Part shown: positions 5,656-29,897 of the stretch, one piece after another
Layout of the letters: every line of letters begins with the position of its first letter
Numbering within the stretch: position 1 is the first letter of the stretch
NCBI GenBank assembly: GCA_031256725.1
Contig: JAIRQE010000013.1
Coordinates: 67,323 to 99,322, forward strand
From: Propionibacteriaceae bacterium
GTDB lineage: Bacteria > Actinomycetota > Actinomycetes > Propionibacteriales > Propionibacteriaceae
Direction: 5' to 3'
DNA length: 32,000 bases
The notes under the pieces: generated by a model
Seen by the model: the letters and a program-made list of their open reading frames with translations, nothing else
Told to the model about the DNA's origin: nothing
Database searches by the model: none
Position numbers and translations under genes: made by a program

Positions 5656-6057
5656 ATGGACTGGACTGACTTGGTACAAGCCGCAGCGGAAGCGGCGAAA
5701 CATGCCTATGTTCCTTATTCACACTATCCGGTTGGGGCGGCAGCTCTAGTCGATGATGGGCGAATGGTGACTGGATGCAATGTGGAGAATGCCTCCATTG
5801 GTTTGACCCTCTGTGCTGAGTGTGGGCTTGTGAGCACACTTATGGCAACCGGTGGTGGCAAACTCACCCACTTCACATGTGTCAATGGAAAGGGCGAGAT
5901 CATCACTGCATGTGGGAGATGTCGTCAACTCCTCATGGAACATGGCGGCCCAACACTTGCAATCTGGTCACCTGAGGGAGAATGTATCTTGGAGGATCTT
6001 CTACCACAGTACTTTGGTCCCAATGACCTTGATGAGTACACGTCCCAAGGAGGATAA
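5656..6057 (+). CDS. cdd: cytidine deaminase (small homotetrameric type)
   Basis: 133 aa. Zinc-ligand contexts CAECG and CGRCRQ. Starts 2 nt after the upstream stop. Confidence 0.9.
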   Translation: MDWTDLVQAAAEAAKHAYVPYSHYPVGAAALVDDGRMVTGCNVENASIGLTLCAECGLVSTLMATGGGKLTHFTCVNGKGEIITACGRCRQLLMEHGGPTLAIWSPEGECILEDLLPQYFGPNDLDEYTSQGG

Positions 6058-14188: not shown

Positions 14189-14443
14189 ATGGCTCAACCA
14201 CTGCGTACCCGTCGTTTTGAAACAAGACTTGATGCTGAGACCGACAACCTCATTAGTGAGGCTGCCGAAATCCTGGGGGAATCACGGTCAACCTTCGTGA
14301 CTCGAGCAGCCAAGCAAGCTGCAACCAAAGTTGTTTCACCCATGGATCAGATGACACGCCGCCAAGCTTTGGCTGTACTCACTGAAGGTATGACTGAAGC
14401 CGAGATAGCTTCATGTCCTCTCCTGAAGGTCTTGGCCTCCTAA
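14189..14443 (+). CDS. DUF1778 (TacA-like, ribbon-helix-helix) antitoxin-family protein, no cognate toxin gene present
   Basis: 84 aa. FETRLDAETDNLISEAAEILGESRSTFVTRAAKQAATKVV aligns by eye with Salmonella TacA LNLRAKESQRALIDAAAEILHKSRTDFILETACQAAEKVI. Confidence 0.75.
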   Translation: MAQPLRTRRFETRLDAETDNLISEAAEILGESRSTFVTRAAKQAATKVVSPMDQMTRRQALAVLTEGMTEAEIASCPLLKVLAS

Positions 14444-17400
14444 ACGAGAACTGATTCCTCGTCGAGAATATCCTCAATGATCTGCGGCTCATGACCCATG
14501 TGAGCAGTGGTCAAAGTCAGCTTGATTCGATTGAGTTGGTTGACCTCTGAGGCACCCGGATCATAGTCAATGGTGACCAGGTTGGCACCAGGATGCTGGC
14601 GACGAATCTCCTTGAACATCCCCTTGCCCGTGACATGGTTGGGAAGGCATGCGAAAGGCTGTACGCAGATCACATTGGGAACACCTGAGTGAATCAGTTC
14701 AACGATTTCACCAGTGAGAAGCCATCCTTCACCTGCCTGATTTCCTAGGCTGGTGACTTCTTGGGCCCTGGAAGTCAATTCGGCCATTGACCCTGGAACA
14801 GTGAACTTCGGGGTCGAGTACCGAGCATTGACCCTCGTGAGTGCCTTGCGGATCGGGGTACGATAGGACTCCATCCACCCTCTGACCAGGGTCTTTGCAC
14901 GACGCCATTTCTTGCCTATTCCAAGGTTCTGCCAGTTCCATTCGGTGGTGTACAACCCTGTCACCATGAACTCCATGAGCCCCGGCAGGGCCGCTTCACA
15001 GCCTTCGGATTCAATGACCTCAATAACATGGTTATTGGCATCGGGGTGGAATTTCACAAGAATTTCTCCCACGATGCCAACTCGTGGTCGGCGAGGTTCA
15101 TCAGTGAGTTCGAAGGCATCGAATTCATCCACAAGAGCGTGTACTAGCCCCGAATACGACAAAGACCTCCCGTAGGTGGGGGACTTTCCTGTCATCAGCC
15201 ATTCACGGATGATTTGATCCCAACGATGGTAGAGATCTGTGGCTGAGTCTGGTACTAGCTCATAGGGCCGTACCCTCAAAAGAAGATCTTGAAGGAGGTC
15301 ACCCAGAGCAAGTGCCCGCATCGCTTTGTGAGCCAGGGGAAGAGTGATCTTGAATCCAGGATTGGATTCGATTCCCGAGGTTGAAATGGCGATAACAGGT
15401 ACCTGTGGGAAACCCGCATCCCGCAGAGCCTTACGCAGCAGAGCAGTGTAATTCGTGGCCCGACACATGCCCCCTGTTTGGGTGATCAAGGCAGAGGTGG
15501 TGTCTGGATCCACCTCACCAGATTTCAATGCTTCCACAAGTTGCCCGATAACCATGATGGCTGGGTAACATGCGTCGTTGTTCACGGTACGCAAACCCAT
15601 TTCAACATCTTGGGCAGAGGCATGTTCAAGGAACTTCACCTTGTACCCAGCAGACTCAATAATTGGGATTACGAGCCGGAAATGGATGGGTGCCATCTGG
15701 GGAGCCAGAATGGTGTGGGTCTTCTTCATCTCCTTGGTGAAAGGTGCCTTCACCAAAGCATGGCTACGCTCAGGCCTATGAATGGTACGACGCTGGTCGG
15801 CTGCTGCTGCCAGGGAACGCAGTCGGATCCTGGCGGCACCAAGGCTCGATACCTCATCGATCTTCAAGAGGGTGTAAACCCGATTCTTGGCTTCCAGAAC
15901 TTCGGCGACCTGCTCCGAGGTGATGGCATCAAGTCCGCATCCGAAAGAGTTGAGTTGTACTAGTTCGAGGTTCTCATCTTGGGTGACCACTGAGGCTGCC
16001 TCGTAGAGGCGGGAGTGATAAGCCCACTGATCTCGTACCCTCAATGGACGCTCAAGCTGGGAATCGCCAAGGATGGAACTCTCGGTGAACACAGCCATAC
16101 CGAGGCTCGTCACAAGTTCGGGGATCCCGTGGTGTACCTCAGGATCAATGTGGTAGGGCCTGCCTGCAAGGACGATTCCACGTACACCATTTTGGGCACA
16201 GTACTCGCGAGCCTCACGACCGGCTTGCTGGATATCAGCTCTGAACTGAGCATCTTCAGCGTATCCGGCTCCAACAGCAGCCTGTGCTTCCTCTTCGGTG
16301 ACATTCCAGTCGGCGAAGATCTCAACAATTCTCTTCGCAAGGTGTTCTGGGTTGGCGAGGTTGACATAGGGGTTAATGAAACGTACCCCAGGTTCCTGGA
16401 TTCTTTCCAGGTTGTTTTGAATCACCTGCGGATAGGAGGCGACAACAGGACAGTTATAGTTTTTGTCGGACTCCGAGATGAGTTGCTGTTCATAGTTCAC
16501 GCTGGGGTAAAAGATGGTTTTCACACCCAGATCTAGGAGATGTTCAACATGGCCATGAACCAACTTCGCTGGGTAACAGACATTCTCTGAGGCGATGGAG
16601 TGCATCCCAAGCTCAAAGAGATCATGGGAACTACGACCAGAGATCACCACACGGAACTTAAGGTGGGTAAGGATGGTGAACCATAAGGGGTAGTTCTCGT
16701 ACATATTGAGGGCTCGTGGGATGCCAATGTCACCACGAACGCCATCCTTGGCGGTGAGGCGTCGATAGCCGAAGAGCCTCTTGTAGGTGTAGTCGAAGAG
16801 GTTCGGCAGGGGAGATTTCGCCTTGGTGGGGTCAGCGCCACGTTCACAGCGGTTGCCAGAGATGTGACGTTCACCATTGCCGAAGGTTGAGATCGTACAC
16901 TGACATGTGTTCTGGCACAGGTTACAGTTCGTTGTCTCGGTTTCCAGATGGATCCTCTTGAGGTTCGCTACAGAAAGCATCCGTGTCGGTGCTCCAGGGA
17001 GGAATTCCGTCTTGGCAGTCAGAGCGGCACCATAGGCTCCCATGAGACCAGCGATGTCCGGGCGTACCACTTCTCGTCCTGTGAGAAGCTCGAAGGCGCG
17101 CAGGACAGCATCGTTGAGGAAGGTACCTCCCTGAACAACGATCTTCTCACCCAATTGGCCTGGCTCTCGAAGCTTGATCACCTTGTAGAGGGCATTGCGA
17201 ATCACCGCATAACTGAGACCTGCGGCGATATCCCCAACTGTGGCGCCCTCCTTTTGTGCTTGCTTGACAGAGGAGTTCATGAAGACCGTACAGCGGCTTC
17301 CTAAATCGACGGGAGCCTGGGACTGACATGCAGCTTCAGTGAATTCACTTATGGTGAGACCCAAGGATTCTGCAAAGGTTTGGAGGAAGGAACCACACCC

Positions 17401-18732
17401 AGATGAGCATGCCTCATTGACGGCAATCGAATCAATGGCACAGTCATGGATGGAAAGGTACTTCATGTCCTGGCCACCGATGTCAATTACTGAGGTCACA
17501 CCGGGGGCAATCTTGTCGGCTGCCCGGAAATGGGCAATGGTTTCCACCACGCCATGGTCGATGTGGAGTGCAGCCTTGATAAGTCCCTCGCCGTAGCCAG
17601 TCACACAAGTCTGGGCAATGATTGCAGCCCCAGGAAGGGCTTGGCGTACCTCGGTAGCAATCGTGATCGCTGCCGCTACAGGGTCGCCTTCATTACCTCC
17701 GTAATAGGACCAGAGAATGTTATCCTCTTCGTCAATGAGTACGGACTTGATGGTCGTCGAACCAGCATCAATACCGAGGAAACAGGCCCCACGAGCCTCG
17801 CTGAGTTCCCTTCGTGCGATGGTTTCCGACCCATGGCGCGTGAGGAAGGCTTCCCGATCCTCCTTGGTGAAAAATAGTGGAGCCATACGCCCCGATTCGG
17901 GTACCAGATGGCGTCGGTTGGTGAGGCGATCAGAGAGTTCCTCCAAACTCATAACCGTGGTGGAGGCCTTCTCAGCCGCACCCATAGCCACAAAAAGTTG
18001 GGCAGATTCTGGGACTATGCATTCTGTTGCCTGACCCTCCAAGGTACGCTCAAAGGCTTGACGTAATTCAGGGAGGAAGTGTAGGGGGCCACCCAGGAAT
18101 ATGACTTTTCCCCTCACCGGGCGGCCTTGGGCGAGGCCAGAGATGGTCTGGGTTGCCACGGCTTGGAAGATCGACGCAGCAAGATCCTCATGTCGAGCAC
18201 CCTCGTTAATCAGCGGTTGAAGATCCGATTTCGCGAAGACTCCACATCGTGAGGCAATGGGGTAGAGGTGAAGATGGCCAGCCGCCAAGTCATTGAGTCC
18301 TGTGGCATCTGTACGCAACAATGTTGCCATCTGATCGATAAAGGCGCCTGTACCCCCTGCACAGGTACCGTTCATGCGCTGTTCGGGTACTGGCTTGAAA
18401 TAGGTGATTTTGGCGTCCTCGCCACCCAACTCGATGGCCACATCTGCCTCAGGATGATGACGTTGAACAGCATGGGTACCAGCGATCACCTCTTGGATGA
18501 ACTCGACCTCCAATGCCTGGGCGATTCCTAATCCACCTGATCCGGTGATCGCTATAGCAGCTTCAATTCCAGGGTAGGCATCGGCAAGTTCCTGAACCAA
18601 TTTCACCAATTCCGCTTGAACATCAGCATTGTGACGTCGGTACTCCTGGTGGATGATGGTGTCATTTTGGATCAGAACCGCTTTGAGAGTCGTAGACCCC
18701 ACATCTAGTCCCAAGGCATGGGTTCGGCGCAC
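14440..18732 (-). CDS. 1430-aa fusion: two BcrAD/BadFG (HgdC-type) activator ATPase domains, a Cys-rich linker, and a 2-hydroxyacyl-CoA dehydratase / double-cubane-protein-like C-terminal module
   Basis: GTG 18732 with AAGGAG 8 nt upstream. Two ATPase repeats start LGLDVGSTTLKAV and LGIDAGSTTIKSV. Each keeps its cluster-Cys contexts (NGTCAGGTGAF/ASRCGVFAKSD and NEACSSGCGSF/GSRCTVFMNSS). CNLCQNTCQC is encoded at about 16896-16930. C-terminal Cys contexts: NVCYPAK, NYNCPVV, SFGCGLDA, NDACYPA, GGMCRATNY, PFACLPNH. Confidence 0.8.
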   Translation of the reverse strand: MRRTHALGLDVGSTTLKAVLIQNDTIIHQEYRRHNADVQAELVKLVQELADAYPGIEAAIAITGSGGLGIAQALEVEFIQEVIAGTHAVQRHHPEADVAIELGGEDAKITYFKPVPEQRMNGTCAGGTGAFIDQMATLLRTDATGLNDLAAGHLHLYPIASRCGVFAKSDLQPLINEGARHEDLAASIFQAVATQTISGLAQGRPVRGKVIFLGGPLHFLPELRQAFERTLEGQATECIVPESAQLFVAMGAAEKASTTVMSLEELSDRLTNRRHLVPESGRMAPLFFTKEDREAFLTRHGSETIARRELSEARGACFLGIDAGSTTIKSVLIDEEDNILWSYYGGNEGDPVAAAITIATEVRQALPGAAIIAQTCVTGYGEGLIKAALHIDHGVVETIAHFRAADKIAPGVTSVIDIGGQDMKYLSIHDCAIDSIAVNEACSSGCGSFLQTFAESLGLTISEFTEAACQSQAPVDLGSRCTVFMNSSVKQAQKEGATVGDIAAGLSYAVIRNALYKVIKLREPGQLGEKIVVQGGTFLNDAVLRAFELLTGREVVRPDIAGLMGAYGAALTAKTEFLPGAPTRMLSVANLKRIHLETETTNCNLCQNTCQCTISTFGNGERHISGNRCERGADPTKAKSPLPNLFDYTYKRLFGYRRLTAKDGVRGDIGIPRALNMYENYPLWFTILTHLKFRVVISGRSSHDLFELGMHSIASENVCYPAKLVHGHVEHLLDLGVKTIFYPSVNYEQQLISESDKNYNCPVVASYPQVIQNNLERIQEPGVRFINPYVNLANPEHLAKRIVEIFADWNVTEEEAQAAVGAGYAEDAQFRADIQQAGREAREYCAQNGVRGIVLAGRPYHIDPEVHHGIPELVTSLGMAVFTESSILGDSQLERPLRVRDQWAYHSRLYEAASVVTQDENLELVQLNSFGCGLDAITSEQVAEVLEAKNRVYTLLKIDEVSSLGAARIRLRSLAAAADQRRTIHRPERSHALVKAPFTKEMKKTHTILAPQMAPIHFRLVIPIIESAGYKVKFLEHASAQDVEMGLRTVNNDACYPAIMVIGQLVEALKSGEVDPDTTSALITQTGGMCRATNYTALLRKALRDAGFPQVPVIAISTSGIESNPGFKITLPLAHKAMRALALGDLLQDLLLRVRPYELVPDSATDLYHRWDQIIREWLMTGKSPTYGRSLSYSGLVHALVDEFDAFELTDEPRRPRVGIVGEILVKFHPDANNHVIEVIESEGCEAALPGLMEFMVTGLYTTEWNWQNLGIGKKWRRAKTLVRGWMESYRTPIRKALTRVNARYSTPKFTVPGSMAELTSRAQEVTSLGNQAGEGWLLTGEIVELIHSGVPNVICVQPFACLPNHVTGKGMFKEIRRQHPGANLVTIDYDPGASEVNQLNRIKLTLTTAHMGHEPQIIEDILDEESVLV

Positions 18733-23628: not shown

Positions 23629-25047
23629 TTATTCCTTAGTGCTTCTGGGTGGTTTGACTGGAAGAAGAACAAAGAAGCCAAAAATAAGAATCGCTGCGAT
23701 AGCTAGCAGACCCCAGTGCTGAGTCGCATTTCCACCTGTAACCGCTTCACCAAGGGCGACAAAGACTGTGAACAGTGCGGGGGAGATGAAGGAGATGACC
23801 CTACCTGTGGTGGTGTAAATCCCAAAGATCTCACCAGAGTGACCATTGGGAATCATTCGAGCAAGGTAACTCCTGGAGGCCGCTTGAGCCGGCCCACACA
23901 ACGAAGACAGCAAAAGCCCAAAGATCCAAAAGATGGTCTTTCCGTGGGCAACCACAGTGGCATCATATCCCGCAGCCCCTTCAGGGATTGCATAAGCTGG
24001 TTGGTGGAGGAAGAAAACCACTATTGCTCCAATGGAAAGCACTGCAAGGCAGAAGAGGATCACCTTCTTGGGGCCAATCTTGTCATCAAGAAGGCCGAAG
24101 AGAATAGTGACAACACCAGCAATGACACTCGCGGCAACACCGAAGTAGATGATTTCTGTCGTAGAGAAACCGAAGGACTGCGCAGCAATGACCGCTCCAA
24201 AAGCAAAGACTGCAGCCAGACCATCCCTAAACAGAGCCGAGGCAATAAGGAAGTACGCAACCTGGCGGTCATGTTTCCAGATGCGTCCCATATGACGGAA
24301 GAGTGCCTTGTACGAACCCAGGATTCCAAGCTTGGTGGGATCATGCAGGGGAGGACGGTCCTTGAGGGAGACGAAGGCAGGGATAGTGAACAGTAGGGTC
24401 CATAGTCCGCAGACGACCATTGATGCCCTGATCTTGTCTGGAGTTTCGGTTAATCCGAACAGACCAACCTCTGGCTGGATGAATAGGAAGAGGATCACCA
24501 GGAGAACAAAGATGCCACCCATATATCCCATGCCCCATCCGAAACCAGAGACCTTGCCCACGTTGGATTCAGTGGCCACGCGATCAAGAGTGGCGTGGTA
24601 TAACGAACCGGCGATCTCGGAGATGATCGAACCTACGCCCAAGATGATGAGACCCACAATCAGGAACTGTGGACTGGGCTCAATGAAGAATAATGCCGCT
24701 GACAAGGCGGCAAGAGCCCAGGTCAGGTACTTCATATTGCGAACCAGATGTCCTGAACGATCAGCGGTTTGTCCAAGAACAGGAGCAATCACAGCAATGA
24801 CGATACCCGCGATCATCGTTGAGATACCGAGAGCCTTGGTGGCACCATTGGGGTTGCCTGGAGAGAAAAAGTCGGCCGTGGTGATGTAAACGGCAAAGAC
24901 AAAGGTCGTGATGACCGTGTTGAAAGGTTGAGCCCCCCAATCCCACAGTGCCCACGCAGTGACTTTGGCTCCGCTTGATTTAGTGTTCTGGGCAAGGGCC
25001 AGACCAGTAGTCTGTGTCTGGTCTGCACTTGTGTGGGTTTCACTCAT
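23629..25047 (-). CDS. MFS transporter, UMF1/Atg22-like family
   Basis: Start ATG 25047 (MSETHTSADQ...) overlaps the upstream gene's stop by 8 nt. The family-typical N-terminal context is WALWDWGAQPFNTVI. About 12 hydrophobic segments. The track start at 25188 lies inside the upstream gene. Confidence 0.75.
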   Translation of the reverse strand: MSETHTSADQTQTTGLALAQNTKSSGAKVTAWALWDWGAQPFNTVITTFVFAVYITTADFFSPGNPNGATKALGISTMIAGIVIAVIAPVLGQTADRSGHLVRNMKYLTWALAALSAALFFIEPSPQFLIVGLIILGVGSIISEIAGSLYHATLDRVATESNVGKVSGFGWGMGYMGGIFVLLVILFLFIQPEVGLFGLTETPDKIRASMVVCGLWTLLFTIPAFVSLKDRPPLHDPTKLGILGSYKALFRHMGRIWKHDRQVAYFLIASALFRDGLAAVFAFGAVIAAQSFGFSTTEIIYFGVAASVIAGVVTILFGLLDDKIGPKKVILFCLAVLSIGAIVVFFLHQPAYAIPEGAAGYDATVVAHGKTIFWIFGLLLSSLCGPAQAASRSYLARMIPNGHSGEIFGIYTTTGRVISFISPALFTVFVALGEAVTGGNATQHWGLLAIAAILIFGFFVLLPVKPPRSTKE

Positions 25048-25828
25048 TGGTACTCCATAGGTTGCGTCTGACAAGGATTTCTTTGAGAAGGTCAGGACGG
25101 TCGGTAATGATGCCATCGATTCCCCAGTCGATGAGGGTTTCCATCTCTTGTGGATCATTGATGGTCCAGGCATGGATGACTTTTCCAATCCTGTGAACCC
25201 TCTCGATTGTTTCAGCAGAGATGACCTGGATCGTCACGGGGCCAATTTTCTCCCTGATAGGAACCTGGATTGCGATTGCAGGGGAGGAGATGATGGTTGA
25301 CAGGACAGGTACAAAAGCTGTCCAGGCAACGCCTACCGGAGCCATGGCTGTAGGGATGGTGCCATGTGTAAGAGCCCTAAACCGTGAGATCCTGGTTTGG
25401 GAGAAAGAATCGACAAGGATGCGATCCTGGACCCCAAAGACATGGATGGCCTTTGTCAAAGGTACAACTGCATCATCAGTTTTAAGATCCACATTGAAAC
25501 AGACCTCAGGGAAGGTACGCAGAACTTCATCAAAGAAGGGGATGGGCTCACCGCCAACAGTGATCTCGGACAATTCGCTTGCCGTGAAATCTCTGACTCG
25601 TCCTGGTACTCCTGTGACACGATCCAATGTGTCGTCATGGAAGCACACTAATCGTCCATCGCGTGTCACCTGAAGATCGGTTTCAATGTAGCGATACCCC
25701 AGTGACACTGCCTGGGCGAAAGCATGGTGGGTGTTCTCTTTGCCAAGATTGGGACCCCATTCGGCTCCACCTCGATGGGCCATCGCTACGAATGCGGGAG
25801 AACAATATTGGTAGTTCTTGGCGTACAT
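25040..25828 (-). CDS. glycerophosphodiester phosphodiesterase
   Basis: 262 aa. Motifs MAHRGG...KENT, YIETDLQVTRDG and CFHDDTLDRVTG. Confidence 0.85.
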   Translation of the reverse strand: MYAKNYQYCSPAFVAMAHRGGAEWGPNLGKENTHHAFAQAVSLGYRYIETDLQVTRDGRLVCFHDDTLDRVTGVPGRVRDFTASELSEITVGGEPIPFFDEVLRTFPEVCFNVDLKTDDAVVPLTKAIHVFGVQDRILVDSFSQTRISRFRALTHGTIPTAMAPVGVAWTAFVPVLSTIISSPAIAIQVPIREKIGPVTIQVISAETIERVHRIGKVIHAWTINDPQEMETLIDWGIDGIITDRPDLLKEILVRRNLWSTNE

Positions 25829-26842: not shown

Positions 26843-28378
26843 TTAGAGTAGGAAAGAGTCGATTCGTGCCCCAAGTGCATTGAGTCGTTGCGGTAGTTCC
26901 TCGTATCCACGGGCAATAACGTAGGTGTCTTCAAGTATGGTCTGCCCACGCGCACCCAAGGCCGCTAAGAAGAGACACATGGCTGGTCTCAGTGCTGGAG
27001 GACAGACGATCTCCCCGCCGCCTCTCCATCTGGTGGGACCAACAACCATAATTCGGTGGGGATCCAGCAATGTGAGGTTGGCTCCCAATTTGTTGAGTCC
27101 CATGAGATGGATCATGCGGAAATCGTAGACCCAGTCAAAGATAGTCGTAGTACCTGTGGCCTGTGCAGCAATGACCGCAAAAAAGGGCAGGTTATCGATA
27201 TTGAGACCAGGGAAGGGCATGGGATGGATCTTGTCGACTGGAGCCACCAACTCTGATGGCTTCACGGTGAGGTCCACAAGACGGGTACGTTGATTGAGGG
27301 CTTTGTACTCCTCAGTGATGGTATAGTTCAGCTTCATTGATTCAAGGACAGCCAACTCGATTTCCATGAACTCAATGGGGATGCGTGTAATGGTCAGCTC
27401 AGAGTCCGTAGCTAGGGCAGCAGTGAGAAGGCTCATCGACTCGATGGGATCCTCGGAAATGTGGTACTCCACATCAACATTGATTGAATCCACGCCATGG
27501 ATGGTTAGTGTGGTGGTACCAATCCCCTCAATGGTGACCCCTAGTTTTGCAATGAACTCGCATAGGTCTTGAACCATATAGTTTGAACTGGCATTACGAA
27601 TTGTGGTGATACCAGGTGTGACCGCAGCAGCCATAATGGCATTTTCAGTCACAGTGTCTCCACGCTCCGTTAATGTAAACTGGCGCTGAGGCCGACTTAG
27701 AGGTACCACGTCACAGTGGTAGAAACCCTCAGTAGCTTCGACAGATAACCCAAGATGGCGCAATGCTTGAAGGTGTGGTTCGACTGTTCTCGTACCCAAA
27801 TTGCAGCCACCAGCATAGGGGAGAGCAAAGGTTGGAAACAGATGCATCAGGGGGCCGAGGAAGAGCAGAATGGACCGGGTTCTGCGCGCTGCCTCAGCAT
27901 TCATTGATGACAGATCGAGTTTCTCGGGTGGACGGATTGTGAGGTCAGTCTGCTCATCATTCCATGTACAGTCCACTCCTATAGAGATGAGAACCTCGAT
28001 AAGGCGGTTAACCTCCTCGATTCGGGCAATCCCTCGCAGCGTTGTTACTCCGCGATTCAACAGGGATGCACACAGGGTAGATACTGCGGCATTCTTACTG
28101 CTTCTGGTTTCTATTGTGCCGTGGAGGCGGCGTCCACCTTCGATGGATAAGTTGACCAATCCCGTGCCAGGGGTGATGAGTTGTTTTCCAAGAACTGCTG
28201 AAATTCGGTTGACCATCTCCAAGGAGAGATTTTGGTTTCCGGCTTCTATTCGACCTATGGCACTTTGACTGGTACTCAGGGCCTTCGCGAGATCTGATTG
28301 GGTCATTCCGATGCTGAGTCGGGCCTCACGAATGAGTATTCCTATTGCCTGTGCCGATGTTGCCATAGCAGACAGCAT
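26843..28378 (-). CDS. XRE-family helix-turn-helix domain fused to a full-length MurA-type enolpyruvyl transferase
   Basis: The N-terminal ~70 aa (IGILIREARLSIGMTQSDLAKALSTSQSAIGRIEAGNQNLSLEMVNRISAVLG) show the Cro/C1 HTH pattern. The rest is collinear with E. coli MurA: SKNAAV (K22-N23), GGCNLGTRTVEPH (C115, R120), GLNIDN (D305), ARGYE (R397). Alternative start ATG 28366 lies 7 nt after a TATGCT -10-like box (leaderless). Confidence 0.8.
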   Translation of the reverse strand: MLSAMATSAQAIGILIREARLSIGMTQSDLAKALSTSQSAIGRIEAGNQNLSLEMVNRISAVLGKQLITPGTGLVNLSIEGGRRLHGTIETRSSKNAAVSTLCASLLNRGVTTLRGIARIEEVNRLIEVLISIGVDCTWNDEQTDLTIRPPEKLDLSSMNAEAARRTRSILLFLGPLMHLFPTFALPYAGGCNLGTRTVEPHLQALRHLGLSVEATEGFYHCDVVPLSRPQRQFTLTERGDTVTENAIMAAAVTPGITTIRNASSNYMVQDLCEFIAKLGVTIEGIGTTTLTIHGVDSINVDVEYHISEDPIESMSLLTAALATDSELTITRIPIEFMEIELAVLESMKLNYTITEEYKALNQRTRLVDLTVKPSELVAPVDKIHPMPFPGLNIDNLPFFAVIAAQATGTTTIFDWVYDFRMIHLMGLNKLGANLTLLDPHRIMVVGPTRWRGGGEIVCPPALRPAMCLFLAALGARGQTILEDTYVIARGYEELPQRLNALGARIDSFLL

Positions 28379-28398
28379 ATCTCATGTTGCGAGGGATT

Positions 28399-28414
28399 AT
28401 CTCATGTATGAGAT
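28399..28414. promoter_or_regulatory. perfect 7-2-7 palindrome ATCTCAT-GT-ATGAGAT, candidate operator
   Basis: Read directly from the sequence. The half-site ATCTCATGT recurs at 28379-28387, exactly 20 bp away and abutting the ATG at 28378. It overlaps the presumed -35 region of the HTH-MurA gene. Confidence 0.5.
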
Positions 28415-28445
28415 GCACGATGTGTTGTTTTGCGTGTTGTGGCGA

Positions 28446-28461
28446 GGGTTCCGTGGAACCC
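28446..28461. promoter_or_regulatory. perfect 7-2-7 palindrome GGGTTCC-GT-GGAACCC upstream of lpdA
   Basis: Read directly from the sequence; it ends 39 nt upstream of the lpdA ATG at 28500. GCGAGGG precedes or overlaps both palindromes (28389-28395 and 28442-28448). Confidence 0.45.
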
Positions 28462-28499
28462 GTCTGACATTTCGGCTCGTTGGAGATAGAGTTGTCTCC

Positions 28500-29897
28500 A
28501 TGACCCACTTCGATACTGTAATCCTTGGTGCAGGACCTGGCGGGTATGTTGCTGCAATTCGCTGCGCACAGCTGGGAATGAAAACAGCGATTATTGAAAA
28601 CAAATGGTGGGGTGGGGTCTGTCTCAATGTCGGATGCATTCCCACAAAGTCGCTACTACGCAATGCGGAAATAGCTCACCTGCTCACCCACGATAAACAA
28701 GCATACGGAATCCAAGGAGACGTGAGATGCGACTATGGAGCGGCGTTTTCCCGCTCCCGTGCGGTATCAGACCGCATGGTCAAAGGAATCCACTTCCTTA
28801 TGAAGAAGAACAAGATCACGGAATACAACGGGTGGGGAGCCTTCAAAAACCATCGTACGATCTCTGTCACCTTCGATACTGGGGTTATTGAAAGTCTCAC
28901 CTTTGATAACTGTGTTATTGCTACGGGGGCCACTCCAAAAATGTTGCCGGGTGTTGTACCAGGGCCACGAGTCATGACCTTTGAGCAGCTCATCATGAGC
29001 CCCAACCTTCCTCGCTCAGTGGTCATCTGTGGGGGAGGGGCCATCGGAGCAGAGTTTGCCTATATCATGGCCAGTTATGGTGTTCAGGTCACCATCATCG
29101 AAGCGTGTGATCGCATCCTTCCACTAGAGGACCCAGAAGTATCCGCTGAGATAACCAAAGCCTACAAAAACTTCGGTATCAATATTCTTACCTCCCATAC
29201 CATCCATGGGATCTCCCAAGACCTCACCTCAGCTAAGGTACATGTAACCAGAGCCAATGGGGGAGAGCCCTATCAGGTCGACGCAGATCAGGTGATGGTC
29301 TCCATAGGTTTCCAACCGAGAATCCATGGATATGGTCTAGAAACCACAGGAGTGGCGCTCAGCCCTCAGGGAGCCATCGCGATTGATACGACCATGAAAA
29401 CGTCAATACCAGGGATTTATGCAATCGGTGATGTCACTGGCAAAATGATGTTGGCACACACAGCAGAGGCCCAGGGAAAGATTGCTGCCGAAACGATGGC
29501 TGGTATGCCAACCATCCCCATCGACTACAAGATGATTCCACGAGCAATTTATTGCGAACCACAGGTAGCCTCCTTCGGGTACACCGAAACTGAGGCACGC
29601 GAGAAGGGCTATAAGGTACGCGTCTCCAAGTTCCCCTTCGCTGCGAATGGAAAAGCCTGGGCACTGGGCAAGTCAACAGGATTCGTGAAAATCATCGCCG
29701 ACTCGACCCACAATGAGATTCTGGGGGCCCATCTTGTTGGTCCCAATGTGACCGAACTTCTACCAGAGTTAACCCTAGCCAAGATGTGGGATCTGACCAC
29801 CGATGAAATTGCGCGAAATATCCACGCTCACCCCACCTTGTCAGAAACCCTCAAAGAGGTCGCTGAAGGCGTCAGTGGCCGTATGACCAATTTCTAA
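28500..29897 (+). CDS. lpdA: dihydrolipoyl dehydrogenase
   Basis: Start ATG 28500 (MTHFDTVILGAGPGGY). Redox disulfide GGVCLNVGCIPTK, NAD site VICGGGAIGAEFA, C-terminal HAHPTLSE. The track start at 28311 is an extension across the divergent promoter region. Confidence 0.9.
   Translation: MTHFDTVILGAGPGGYVAAIRCAQLGMKTAIIENKWWGGVCLNVGCIPTKSLLRNAEIAHLLTHDKQAYGIQGDVRCDYGAAFSRSRAVSDRMVKGIHFLMKKNKITEYNGWGAFKNHRTISVTFDTGVIESLTFDNCVIATGATPKMLPGVVPGPRVMTFEQLIMSPNLPRSVVICGGGAIGAEFAYIMASYGVQVTIIEACDRILPLEDPEVSAEITKAYKNFGINILTSHTIHGISQDLTSAKVHVTRANGGEPYQVDADQVMVSIGFQPRIHGYGLETTGVALSPQGAIAIDTTMKTSIPGIYAIGDVTGKMMLAHTAEAQGKIAAETMAGMPTIPIDYKMIPRAIYCEPQVASFGYTETEAREKGYKVRVSKFPFAANGKAWALGKSTGFVKIIADSTHNEILGAHLVGPNVTELLPELTLAKMWDLTTDEIARNIHAHPTLSETLKEVAEGVSGRMTNF

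Follow-up and report, generated by a model that had tools for sequence, protein, structure and literature searches.

MurA, the target of fosfomycin, carries out the committed step of peptidoglycan synthesis. Its known control is post-translational and involves ClpCP proteolysis, ReoM/IreB and the PASTA kinases and, in mycobacteria, CwlM. In trigger enzymes such as BirA (biotin ligase with a winged helix-turn-helix), NadR (helix-turn-helix with a nicotinamide mononucleotide adenylyltransferase/kinase) and PutA (ribbon-helix-helix with proline dehydrogenase), the operator lies in the promoter of the pathway or of the own gene, and DNA binding depends on the ligand or on the catalytic state. Here we describe a gene encoding an XRE helix-turn-helix (HTH) domain fused to a MurA-like enolpyruvyl transferase domain (HTH-MurA), found in a 32,000-nucleotide stretch from a Propionibacteriaceae bacterium (GCA_031256725.1, contig JAIRQE010000013.1, positions 67,323 to 99,322; hereafter the window). 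HTH-MurA is a variant of the enzyme-fused-to-repressor theme: as in BirA, NadR and PutA, an enzyme and a DNA-binding domain share one conserved polypeptide, whereas the folds are XRE and enolpyruvyl transferase, the pathway is peptidoglycan synthesis, and the actinobacterial form shows self-regulation only, in silico. On balance, we consider it probable that this protein is a bifunctional, autorepressing trigger enzyme or peptidoglycan-precursor sensor of the MurA2/SCO5998 lineage.

Judged by its sequence, the window protein is an orthologue of Streptomyces MurA2 (SCO5998 / sven5810 / vnz_28735); identity is 61-63% over residues 12-509, and the two belong to the same orthologous family, with the same operator. 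The published role of MurA2 is that of a second UDP-N-acetylglucosamine (UDP-GlcNAc) transferase and a target of BldM-WhiI, SigB and DmdR1. In S. venezuelae, footprinting placed murA2 among the late-sporulation targets of BldM-WhiI (PMC4125116), SCO5998p is a SigB-dependent promoter (PMC8346170), a DmdR1 site is predicted at SCO5998 (PMC12161575), and murA2 overexpression gave no exploration phenotype (PMC11005364). These four papers on Streptomyces MurA2 make no mention of an HTH, an operator or a regulatory role. A literature search for a described HTH-MurA returned nothing beyond a Pfam domain-co-occurrence table, where HTH_3 is merely listed together with EPSP_synthase (PMC9394408). The family is known as a gene name and a database architecture, not as a DNA-binding protein. 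An earlier note on this DNA had held that no protein of this architecture was characterised; this stands for the function, the HTH being described in no paper of the library searched, and falls for the architecture, which is catalogued in Pfam surveys and RefSeq names (PMC9394408).

Streptomyces carries the canonical MurA SCO2949 beside MurA2 SCO5998 (PMC12161575). HTH-MurA is, at least in Streptomyces, a distinct paralogue subfamily, which corrects the initial description of the window protein as a MurA with an added domain. Neither the window nor the retrieved relative loci contained a second murA, the search covering this DNA only. In about 29 Streptomyces loci an aconitase gene is divergent, one or two genes away, an arrangement described as SCO5998/SCO5999 (acnA) (PMC12161575). 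One locus (L075, 9632-9667) contains an SCO5998p-like promoter, GCCATC-N14-GGGTAT, which departs from the published one at 6 of 36 nt and precedes the gene by about 345 nt. With a SigB-type promoter in this position, Streptomyces murA2 would have a long-leader transcript running through the operator, beside the leaderless transcript described below.

Canonical MurA (1UAE; TIGR01072) shares with HTH-MurA the two-domain inside-out alpha/beta-barrel (TM 0.92), the Cys115 loop and, C115 included, nine residues of the catalytic and phosphoenolpyruvate (PEP) sites. HTH-MurA differs in having only ~25% identity to it, an added N-terminal HTH, no D369, and the changes E188N, S162G and V163D. Firmicutes resemble Streptomyces in having two MurA-family genes per genome (MurAA/MurAB, or MurA/MurZ), one of them conditionally used; neither paralogue carries an HTH, and both are under post-translational control via ClpCP, ReoM/IreB and PASTA kinases (PMC7286690, PMC12077105).

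The HTH-MurA gene is a single uninterrupted open reading frame (ORF) of 511 codons on the minus strand (26843..28378). Its true start is most likely the ATG at 28366 (Met5) rather than 28378, giving a MurA2-type coding sequence at 26843..28366 and a protein of 507 amino acids, because NCBI annotates that start for a 100%-identical, 507-residue protein (P0001) from a Propionibacteriaceae metagenome-assembled genome (MAG), and because this ATG follows a probable -10 hexamer, TATGCT (28374..28379, minus strand), by 7 nt. Residues are numbered on the 511-codon ORF. The two domains that the earlier note had read in this ORF were both recovered by Pfam, HTH_3 at residues 16-66 (E 4.5e-12; 46.2 bits, gathering cutoff 23) and EPSP_synthase over residues 80-499 (E 2.3e-46; positions 2-417 of the 417-position profile). 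The XRE/Cro-C1 HTH domain occupies 28181..28345 (minus strand, residues 12-66), with the recognition helix TSQSAIGRIEAG. It is followed by a flexible linker (28151..28180, minus strand, residues 67-76), the least conserved segment at 26-40% identity, and by the MurA-like enolpyruvyl-transferase domain (26858..28150, minus strand, residues 77-507), which was assigned from Pfam, the NCBIfam model NF006873, a residue table and Foldseek.

The C-terminal part passed NF006873, a MurA subfamily model, with 310.3 bits against a cutoff of 297. Its top solved relatives were all MurA (5u4h, E 3e-52), NikO (E 1e-19) and AroA being far weaker. The AlphaFold2 (AF2) model of the window protein had a pLDDT of 89.2 and a pTM of 0.80; Foldseek gave TM scores of 0.89-0.93 to MurA structures, with NikO also a structural neighbour. 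Confidence was low at about residues 64-74, in the linker, with pLDDT below 50 at 70-72. Four HTH helices were modelled, at 9-22, 27-33, 38-45 and 53-63, and the closest solved relatives of this domain are DNA-binding XREs, namely controller proteins, HigA and ClgR.

The fusion is widespread. A scan using one genome per species found it, HTH included, in at least 598 species (at least 598 loci) of at least 5 actinobacterial orders. The best 80 loci, which were examined in detail, matched residues about 12-509 at 61-68% identity and span Streptomyces, Nonomuraea, Longispora, Pseudonocardiaceae, Allokutzneria, Nocardioides, Actinopolymorpha, Microlunatus and Acidipropionibacterium. Both domains were present in all 120 best database relatives, and clustering at 50% collapsed the whole HTH-MurA family to one representative. 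The mean top-residue frequency was 0.80 for the HTH and 0.79 for the enzyme domain, the linker being the sole loose part, and the recognition helix, TSQSAxxRIExGxQNxSLEM, was nearly invariant. We gave a vanishingly small probability to an assembly or frameshift artefact joining two separate genes: we found nothing in its favour, and it is refuted by conservation, since a fusion of the same length, uninterrupted, recurs in hundreds of independent isolate genomes and MAGs. The frameshift that the earlier note wished to exclude is thereby ruled out.

We then turned to the 133-bp region between the HTH-MurA gene and lpdA, which holds a perfect inverted repeat and a third copy of its half-site. The repeat, a candidate operator of 16 bp (ATCTCATACATGAGAT; ATCTCA-N4-TGAGAT; 28399..28414), was found by an inverted-repeat search. 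It scored 24 bits with a position weight matrix, whereas the next-best site in the 32-kb window scored 10, the level of shuffled sequence. The core CTCAY-N2-RTGAG occurs upstream of the gene in 21 of the 80 orthologous loci, at ~63x background density. The matrix was trained on those 21 core sites, 60 of the 81 sites lying outside the training set, and it matched at the same position in 81/81 loci with a minimum of 14.2 bits, whereas no score in the 1.54 Mb of flanking DNA exceeded 11.4. The intergenic DNA around the palindrome is otherwise unalignable between genera. In the consensus ATCTCA-N4-TGAGAT, 10 bp separate the centres of the two half-sites, the spacing that one would expect of a dimeric HTH protein. 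The Streptomyces form is ATCTCATATCTGAGAT, and the operator is identical in the model Streptomyces.

The position of the repeat relative to the gene is equally constant. Its last T opens a TAnnnT hexamer in 79/81 loci, and an in-frame ATG or GTG follows this hexamer by 6-8 nt in at least 72/81, without a Shine-Dalgarno sequence. A -10 box this close to the start codon indicates a leaderless mRNA, the geometry being standard for actinobacterial leaderless promoters, and it places the repeat in the -35/-10 spacer. On four low-GC metagenome contigs encoding a 49%-identical HTH-MurA, the repeat is the exact spacer between TTGCAT and TATACT. A protein bound to a palindrome that abuts the -10 box and fills the spacer would occlude RNA polymerase. 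There is thus strong in-silico support for reading the palindrome as an operator in the gene's own promoter, serving negative autoregulation. The idea of autoregulation had been raised on first reading, and a conserved palindromic operator in the own promoter, inside 28379-28461, now gives it in-silico backing.

The arrangement resembles that of small XRE autorepressors (C.Esp1396I, C.AhdI, 434 Cro/cI, HigA/HipB, ClgR), which share the HTH_3 domain, a similar recognition helix and a palindromic operator with ~10-bp half-site spacing overlapping the own promoter. Unlike HTH-MurA, these proteins dimerise via the HTH or a short C-terminal helix and are without a 430-residue enzyme domain. To our knowledge, ATCTCA-N4-TGAGAT is not the operator of any of them. 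The window differs from all 80 orthologous loci by a ~20-bp duplication of the right half-site within 28379-28414 (CATGAGATAA TCCCTCGCAA CATGAGATAT). The search for inverted repeats and the comparison with its relative L001 and 79 other loci identified an extra proximal half-site, ATGAGAT, at 28379..28385 (minus strand), fused to the -10 box. We also considered the palindrome as an RNA hairpin or riboswitch and rejected this: pairing was 83% compared with 84.6% in shuffles, half of the variation breaks pairing, the palindrome gave no covariation and no Rfam match, and it sits upstream of the inferred leaderless transcription start.

A motif-first metagenome scan for ATCTCATRYVTGAGATA returned 120 contigs, 50 of them with a GC content of at least 0.58. 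Among these high-GC contigs, HTH-MurA lay immediately downstream of the palindrome in 32/50, plus 4 cut by contig ends. On 4/50 a stand-alone XRE protein of 85-123 amino acids was found downstream instead; this protein has the helix MGTSQSAVARxEAG and matches the window HTH with 44% identity (E 2e-13). Since stand-alone XREs lie behind the same palindrome, it is the HTH, and not the MurA domain, to which the palindrome is tied. On 66 low-GC contigs no HTH-MurA gene was present (62 classed as other and 4 near a contig end); these are chance matches of the kind to be expected in AT-rich DNA. The exact 17-mer also occurred without an adjacent HTH gene on 9 high-GC contigs.

Some features of these contigs stand apart from the scan result. 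The stand-alone XRE loci (L101, 390-720; L186, 9333-9620; L109, about 700-1000; L136, about 60-460) share the N-terminal motif ERRHxPxxPGF and have ATCTCATATxTGAGATA directly before the gene; at L109 the gene is divergent from a ClpP-like gene. The stand-alone XRE may be a free-living ancestor or a paralogue of the HTH module. Several mostly high-GC contigs (L137, L173, L183, L184, L191, L190/L168) carry ATCTCATGC[ACG]TGAGATA with no adjacent HTH gene, one site adjoining a DEAD-box helicase gene and one a PPK2-like gene. Several of these sites have a TGC centre, which occurs at none of the murA2 sites. Chance, a repeat or additional targets could each account for them.

The same pairing of HTH and palindrome was found in relatives that have lost the active site. 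Six distant HTH_3+EPSP_synthase proteins, 32-38% identical, lack C115, R91, R371 and other catalytic residues. These pseudoenzymes keep the helix KTSQSAVARIEKGEQN (pattern KTSQSA[VI]ARIEKGEQNLT), and ATATCA-N4-TGATAT stands 16-28 nt before the start codon in 3/6 of their genes, with an imperfect copy in a fourth; the palindrome of this branch (L201, L204, L205) is ATATCATATATGATAT. Three pseudoenzymes on low-GC contigs (P0138, P0142 and P0160) are encoded among mur genes. The genes for P0138 and P0160 are directly back to back with murA-murB, that for P0142 is two genes from a bona fide EPSP_synthase/murA gene, and each of the three overlaps by 11 nt a co-oriented downstream Mur-ligase or Ddl gene. 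The gene for P0149 lies behind a sugar nucleotidyltransferase gene. Read from its gene settings, the pseudoenzyme branch plainly appears to be a regulator embedded in peptidoglycan-precursor operons, and its dead MurA fold is a probable ligand sensor. With catalytic residues lost, helix and palindrome kept and a setting among mur genes, the regulatory role would outlive catalysis in this superfamily.

The neighbours of these regulators are themselves unusual. The murA-like genes adjoining them (L201, 4624-5940; L204, 95-1411; L205, 3768-5126) encode proteins that keep K22, N23, R91, C115, R120 and D305 and have Gly at R331 and Gln at R371 (YENGLDF, PGIIQAT). At L201 (7493-9082), a D-Ala-D-Ala ligase fused to Peptidase_C39_2 is encoded immediately downstream of the pseudoenzyme gene and overlaps it.

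Whether the HTH is part of the fused enzyme, part of the fused pseudoenzyme or a stand-alone XRE, the palindrome thus appears to follow it, in three protein contexts and across phyla. This bears on whether the HTH reads DNA at all. The protein could be an enzyme only, its HTH serving protein contacts or localisation and the palindrome being the site of another regulator. There is a precedent in favour of such a role: RodZ binds MreB with its XRE-type HTH, a case in which an XRE-like fold was recruited to contact a protein. In Streptomyces, murA2 is a late-sporulation gene under BldM-WhiI (PMC4125116), which would supply another regulator. We consider this account improbable: the recognition helix, nearly invariant, has the textbook form with which XRE proteins read DNA, its closest solved relatives are the DNA-binding proteins named above, and the palindrome accompanies this HTH type in all three contexts, across phyla lacking BldM/WhiI.

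The active site of the MurA-like domain was compared with E. coli MurA, whose sequence was verified to be identical to 1UAE. K22/N23 correspond to K95/N96 of the window protein, R91 to R168, C115 to C192, R120 to R197, D305 to D395, R331 to R421, R371 to R464 and R397 to R490; the D369 position is Ala462, inside a CPPALRPA motif with a one-residue insertion. Every residue named in the earlier note, including the Ala, was correct by this alignment. When 202 HTH-MurA sequences were aligned with 71 canonical MurA representatives, K22, N23, R91, C115, R120, D305, R331, R371 and R397 were invariant in 202/202 family members, which argues that the chemistry of the active site is still under selection. 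Enolpyruvyl transfer by proteins of the window type is therefore likely on sequence grounds. The strongest argument at hand for a dual role of the window protein is the contrast between decay in the pseudoenzymes and residues frozen across the actinobacterial radiation.

Proteins without an HTH that share the CPPALRPA signature (P0122, P0125, P0130, P0131, P0144, P0154) were also found. The gene for P0125 is surrounded by housekeeping genes on a 641-kb contig, a setting which gives a hint that a MurA with this variant of the active site can be functional, and no palindrome was found upstream of it (L209). Directly upstream of P0125 lies a tRNA-like sequence (L209, about 5925-6000), whose anticodon stem-loop, by eye, suggests Cys-GCA.

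In the model that we favour, the XRE HTH would bind ATCTCA-N4-TGAGAT, presumably as a dimer, and binding at the core promoter of its own leaderless gene would block RNA polymerase, giving negative autoregulation. The MurA-like domain most likely binds PEP and a UDP-sugar (UDP-GlcNAc or UDP-N-acetylmuramic acid, UDP-MurNAc), because the complete PEP and catalytic constellation is present, and it would probably transfer enolpyruvate. MurA is known to close upon binding UDP-GlcNAc and to form a tight dormant complex with UDP-MurNAc and Cys-PEP. A comparable ligand-induced movement between open and closed forms of the MurA fold would determine how tightly the HTH pair binds DNA; dimerisation that depends on the ligand, as in BirA, could be an alternative or added route. 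The abundance of the enzyme would thereby be tuned to the peptidoglycan-precursor or PEP pool. Established in silico are the architecture, its conservation, the operator, the promoter geometry, the link between operator and HTH, and the association of the superfamily with mur genes.

Several points weigh against this model. DNA binding, repression, ligand control and catalysis are steps that we infer from those features. In the window itself, the full palindrome is shifted ~20 nt upstream and covers about -48 to -33, not the spacer. A search of the 32-kb window and of 1.54 Mb of flanks gave no second operator copy, which leaves an autoregulatory site only, and no dimer interface was identified in the protein, while XRE domains bind palindromes as dimers. 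In Streptomyces, BldM-WhiI and SigB act on the promoter region, where a DmdR1 site is also predicted, and part of the conservation could serve these regulators. The C-terminal part missed the cutoff of the murA equivalog model TIGR01072 (294.8 against 392.7 bits; NCBIfam). Family-wide, D369 is replaced by Ala or Pro, and E188N, S162G and V163D are found; at all four positions, 64-68 of the 71 canonical MurA keep the residue. S162-G164 of MurA form the diphosphate-binding region (PMC8698320), and with D369, E188, S162 and V163 replaced the substrate or the activity may differ. The D369 position is not strictly essential, since E. coli MurA variants D369N and L370I are viable and less fosfomycin-sensitive (PMC4790336). 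The wording of the earlier note, an apparently catalytically competent MurA, is upheld by the nine invariant residues and weakened by the four replacements and the missed equivalog cutoff; on sequence it remains plausible.

The same replacements raise two further accounts. In the first, HTH-MurA would be a pure transcription factor whose MurA fold senses UDP-GlcNAc, UDP-MurNAc or PEP, perhaps via a Cys-PEP adduct, and adds no significant flux, while canonical MurA makes all UDP-GlcNAc-enolpyruvate. The pseudoenzyme relatives show that the architecture can act as a regulator without catalysis, and the replaced residues and the missed TIGR01072 cutoff point the same way, as do the separate MurA in Streptomyces (PMC12161575) and the lack of a phenotype upon murA2 overexpression in one assay (PMC11005364). 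We regard this account as rather unlikely: nine residues, Cys115 and Asp305 among them, are invariant in all 202 members across orders, whereas they decayed rapidly in the pseudoenzyme branch, and the HTH-less members with the same active-site signature are apparently ordinary MurA genes.

In the second, an autoregulated enolpyruvyl transferase would act on another nucleotide-sugar, as NikO acts on uridine monophosphate, for a specialised wall or spore polymer. A shifted substrate preference of the MurA-like domain is conceivable: the invariant, family-specific changes S162G, V163D, E188N, T304I and P121T fall at positions that line the diphosphate and the sugar, NikO is a structural neighbour, and expression in Streptomyces is developmental and stress-specific (PMC4125116, PMC8346170). 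A protein built for another substrate altogether seems very improbable, as MurA structures match at E 3e-52 and NikO at 1e-19, the residues that hold UDP-GlcNAc in MurA (N23, R91, R120, D305) are invariant, and the pseudoenzyme relatives are located in classical mur clusters.

Beyond the self-regulating enzyme, we propose a broader view more tentatively. It is possible that HTH-MurA is an ancient, unrecognised family of precursor-sensing transcription factors built from MurA, with catalytic members in Actinomycetota that set their own level via ATCTCA-N4-TGAGAT and degenerate members in low-GC uncultivated bacteria controlling murA-murB/mur-ligase operons through an operator of similar kind. 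New here are the defined candidate operator, the leaderless promoter architecture and the evolutionary series from enzyme to pseudoenzyme regulator. If the model holds, a DNA-reading copy of MurA would add a direct transcriptional feedback layer to cell-wall synthesis. On the broader view, this would be the first transcriptional feedback loop on the committed step to use a copy of the enzyme under control as its sensor. The signal would be UDP-MurNAc, UDP-GlcNAc or PEP, possibly through the Cys115 adduct. Streptomyces MurA2, induced upon sporulation and stress, would gain a function beyond isoenzyme redundancy, and nature would have supplied a biosensor module for pools of UDP-sugars or PEP. 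The pseudoenzymes inside mur clusters would illustrate the evolutionary path from a core enzyme to a dedicated regulator. The hypothesis is open to immediate test, the operator being defined to the base and shared with model Streptomyces, and the protein should purify easily.

The genes next to HTH-MurA offered no support for a metabolic link. The earlier note had placed the gene at the PEP/pyruvate node because of lpdA and pfkA; we rejected a functional link to them, as these neighbours are lineage-specific. The lpdA gene is divergent from HTH-MurA only in 15 Propionibacteriaceae loci, and pfkA is a neighbour only in the two closest relatives (L001 and L002). In other lineages the neighbours are unrelated, with acnA in Streptomyces and an alcohol dehydrogenase gene in Nocardioides, and the lpdA/pfkA neighbourhood contained no conserved regulatory element beyond the operator of the HTH-MurA gene itself. 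Immediately before a promoter-like pair for lpdA (CTGACA at 28464; TAGAGT, which ends at 28492) there is a second perfect 16-bp palindrome, GGGTTCCACGGAACCC (28446-28461). We rejected this palindrome as an element of HTH-MurA: it is not conserved in relatives, and L001, the closest of them, lacks it. If it belongs to either gene, it is part of the lpdA promoter, where it may be the site for an unrelated lpdA regulator. The lpdA gene looks leaderless too, with the -10-like TAGAGT ending at 28492 and a probable ATG (MTHFDTVILGAG...) at 28500; the listed lpdA ORF start at 28311 is an upstream extension overlapping the HTH-MurA gene.

The remaining genes of the window (metX/metW, lnt, GT2, MFS, GDPD and pyridoxal kinase) are unrelated to the cell wall. 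A 1430-amino-acid protein encoded at 14440-18732 on the minus strand contains two BcrAD_BadFG ATPase regions and DUF2229, and looks like the activase of a CoA-dependent enzyme of the 2-hydroxyacyl-CoA dehydratase or benzoyl-CoA reductase type. An MFS/Atg22-like ORF (23629-25188, minus strand) overlaps the GDPD gene (25040-25828, minus strand) by about 150 nt; its Pfam match begins only at residue 212, which probably places the true start considerably further downstream than the TTG at 25188.

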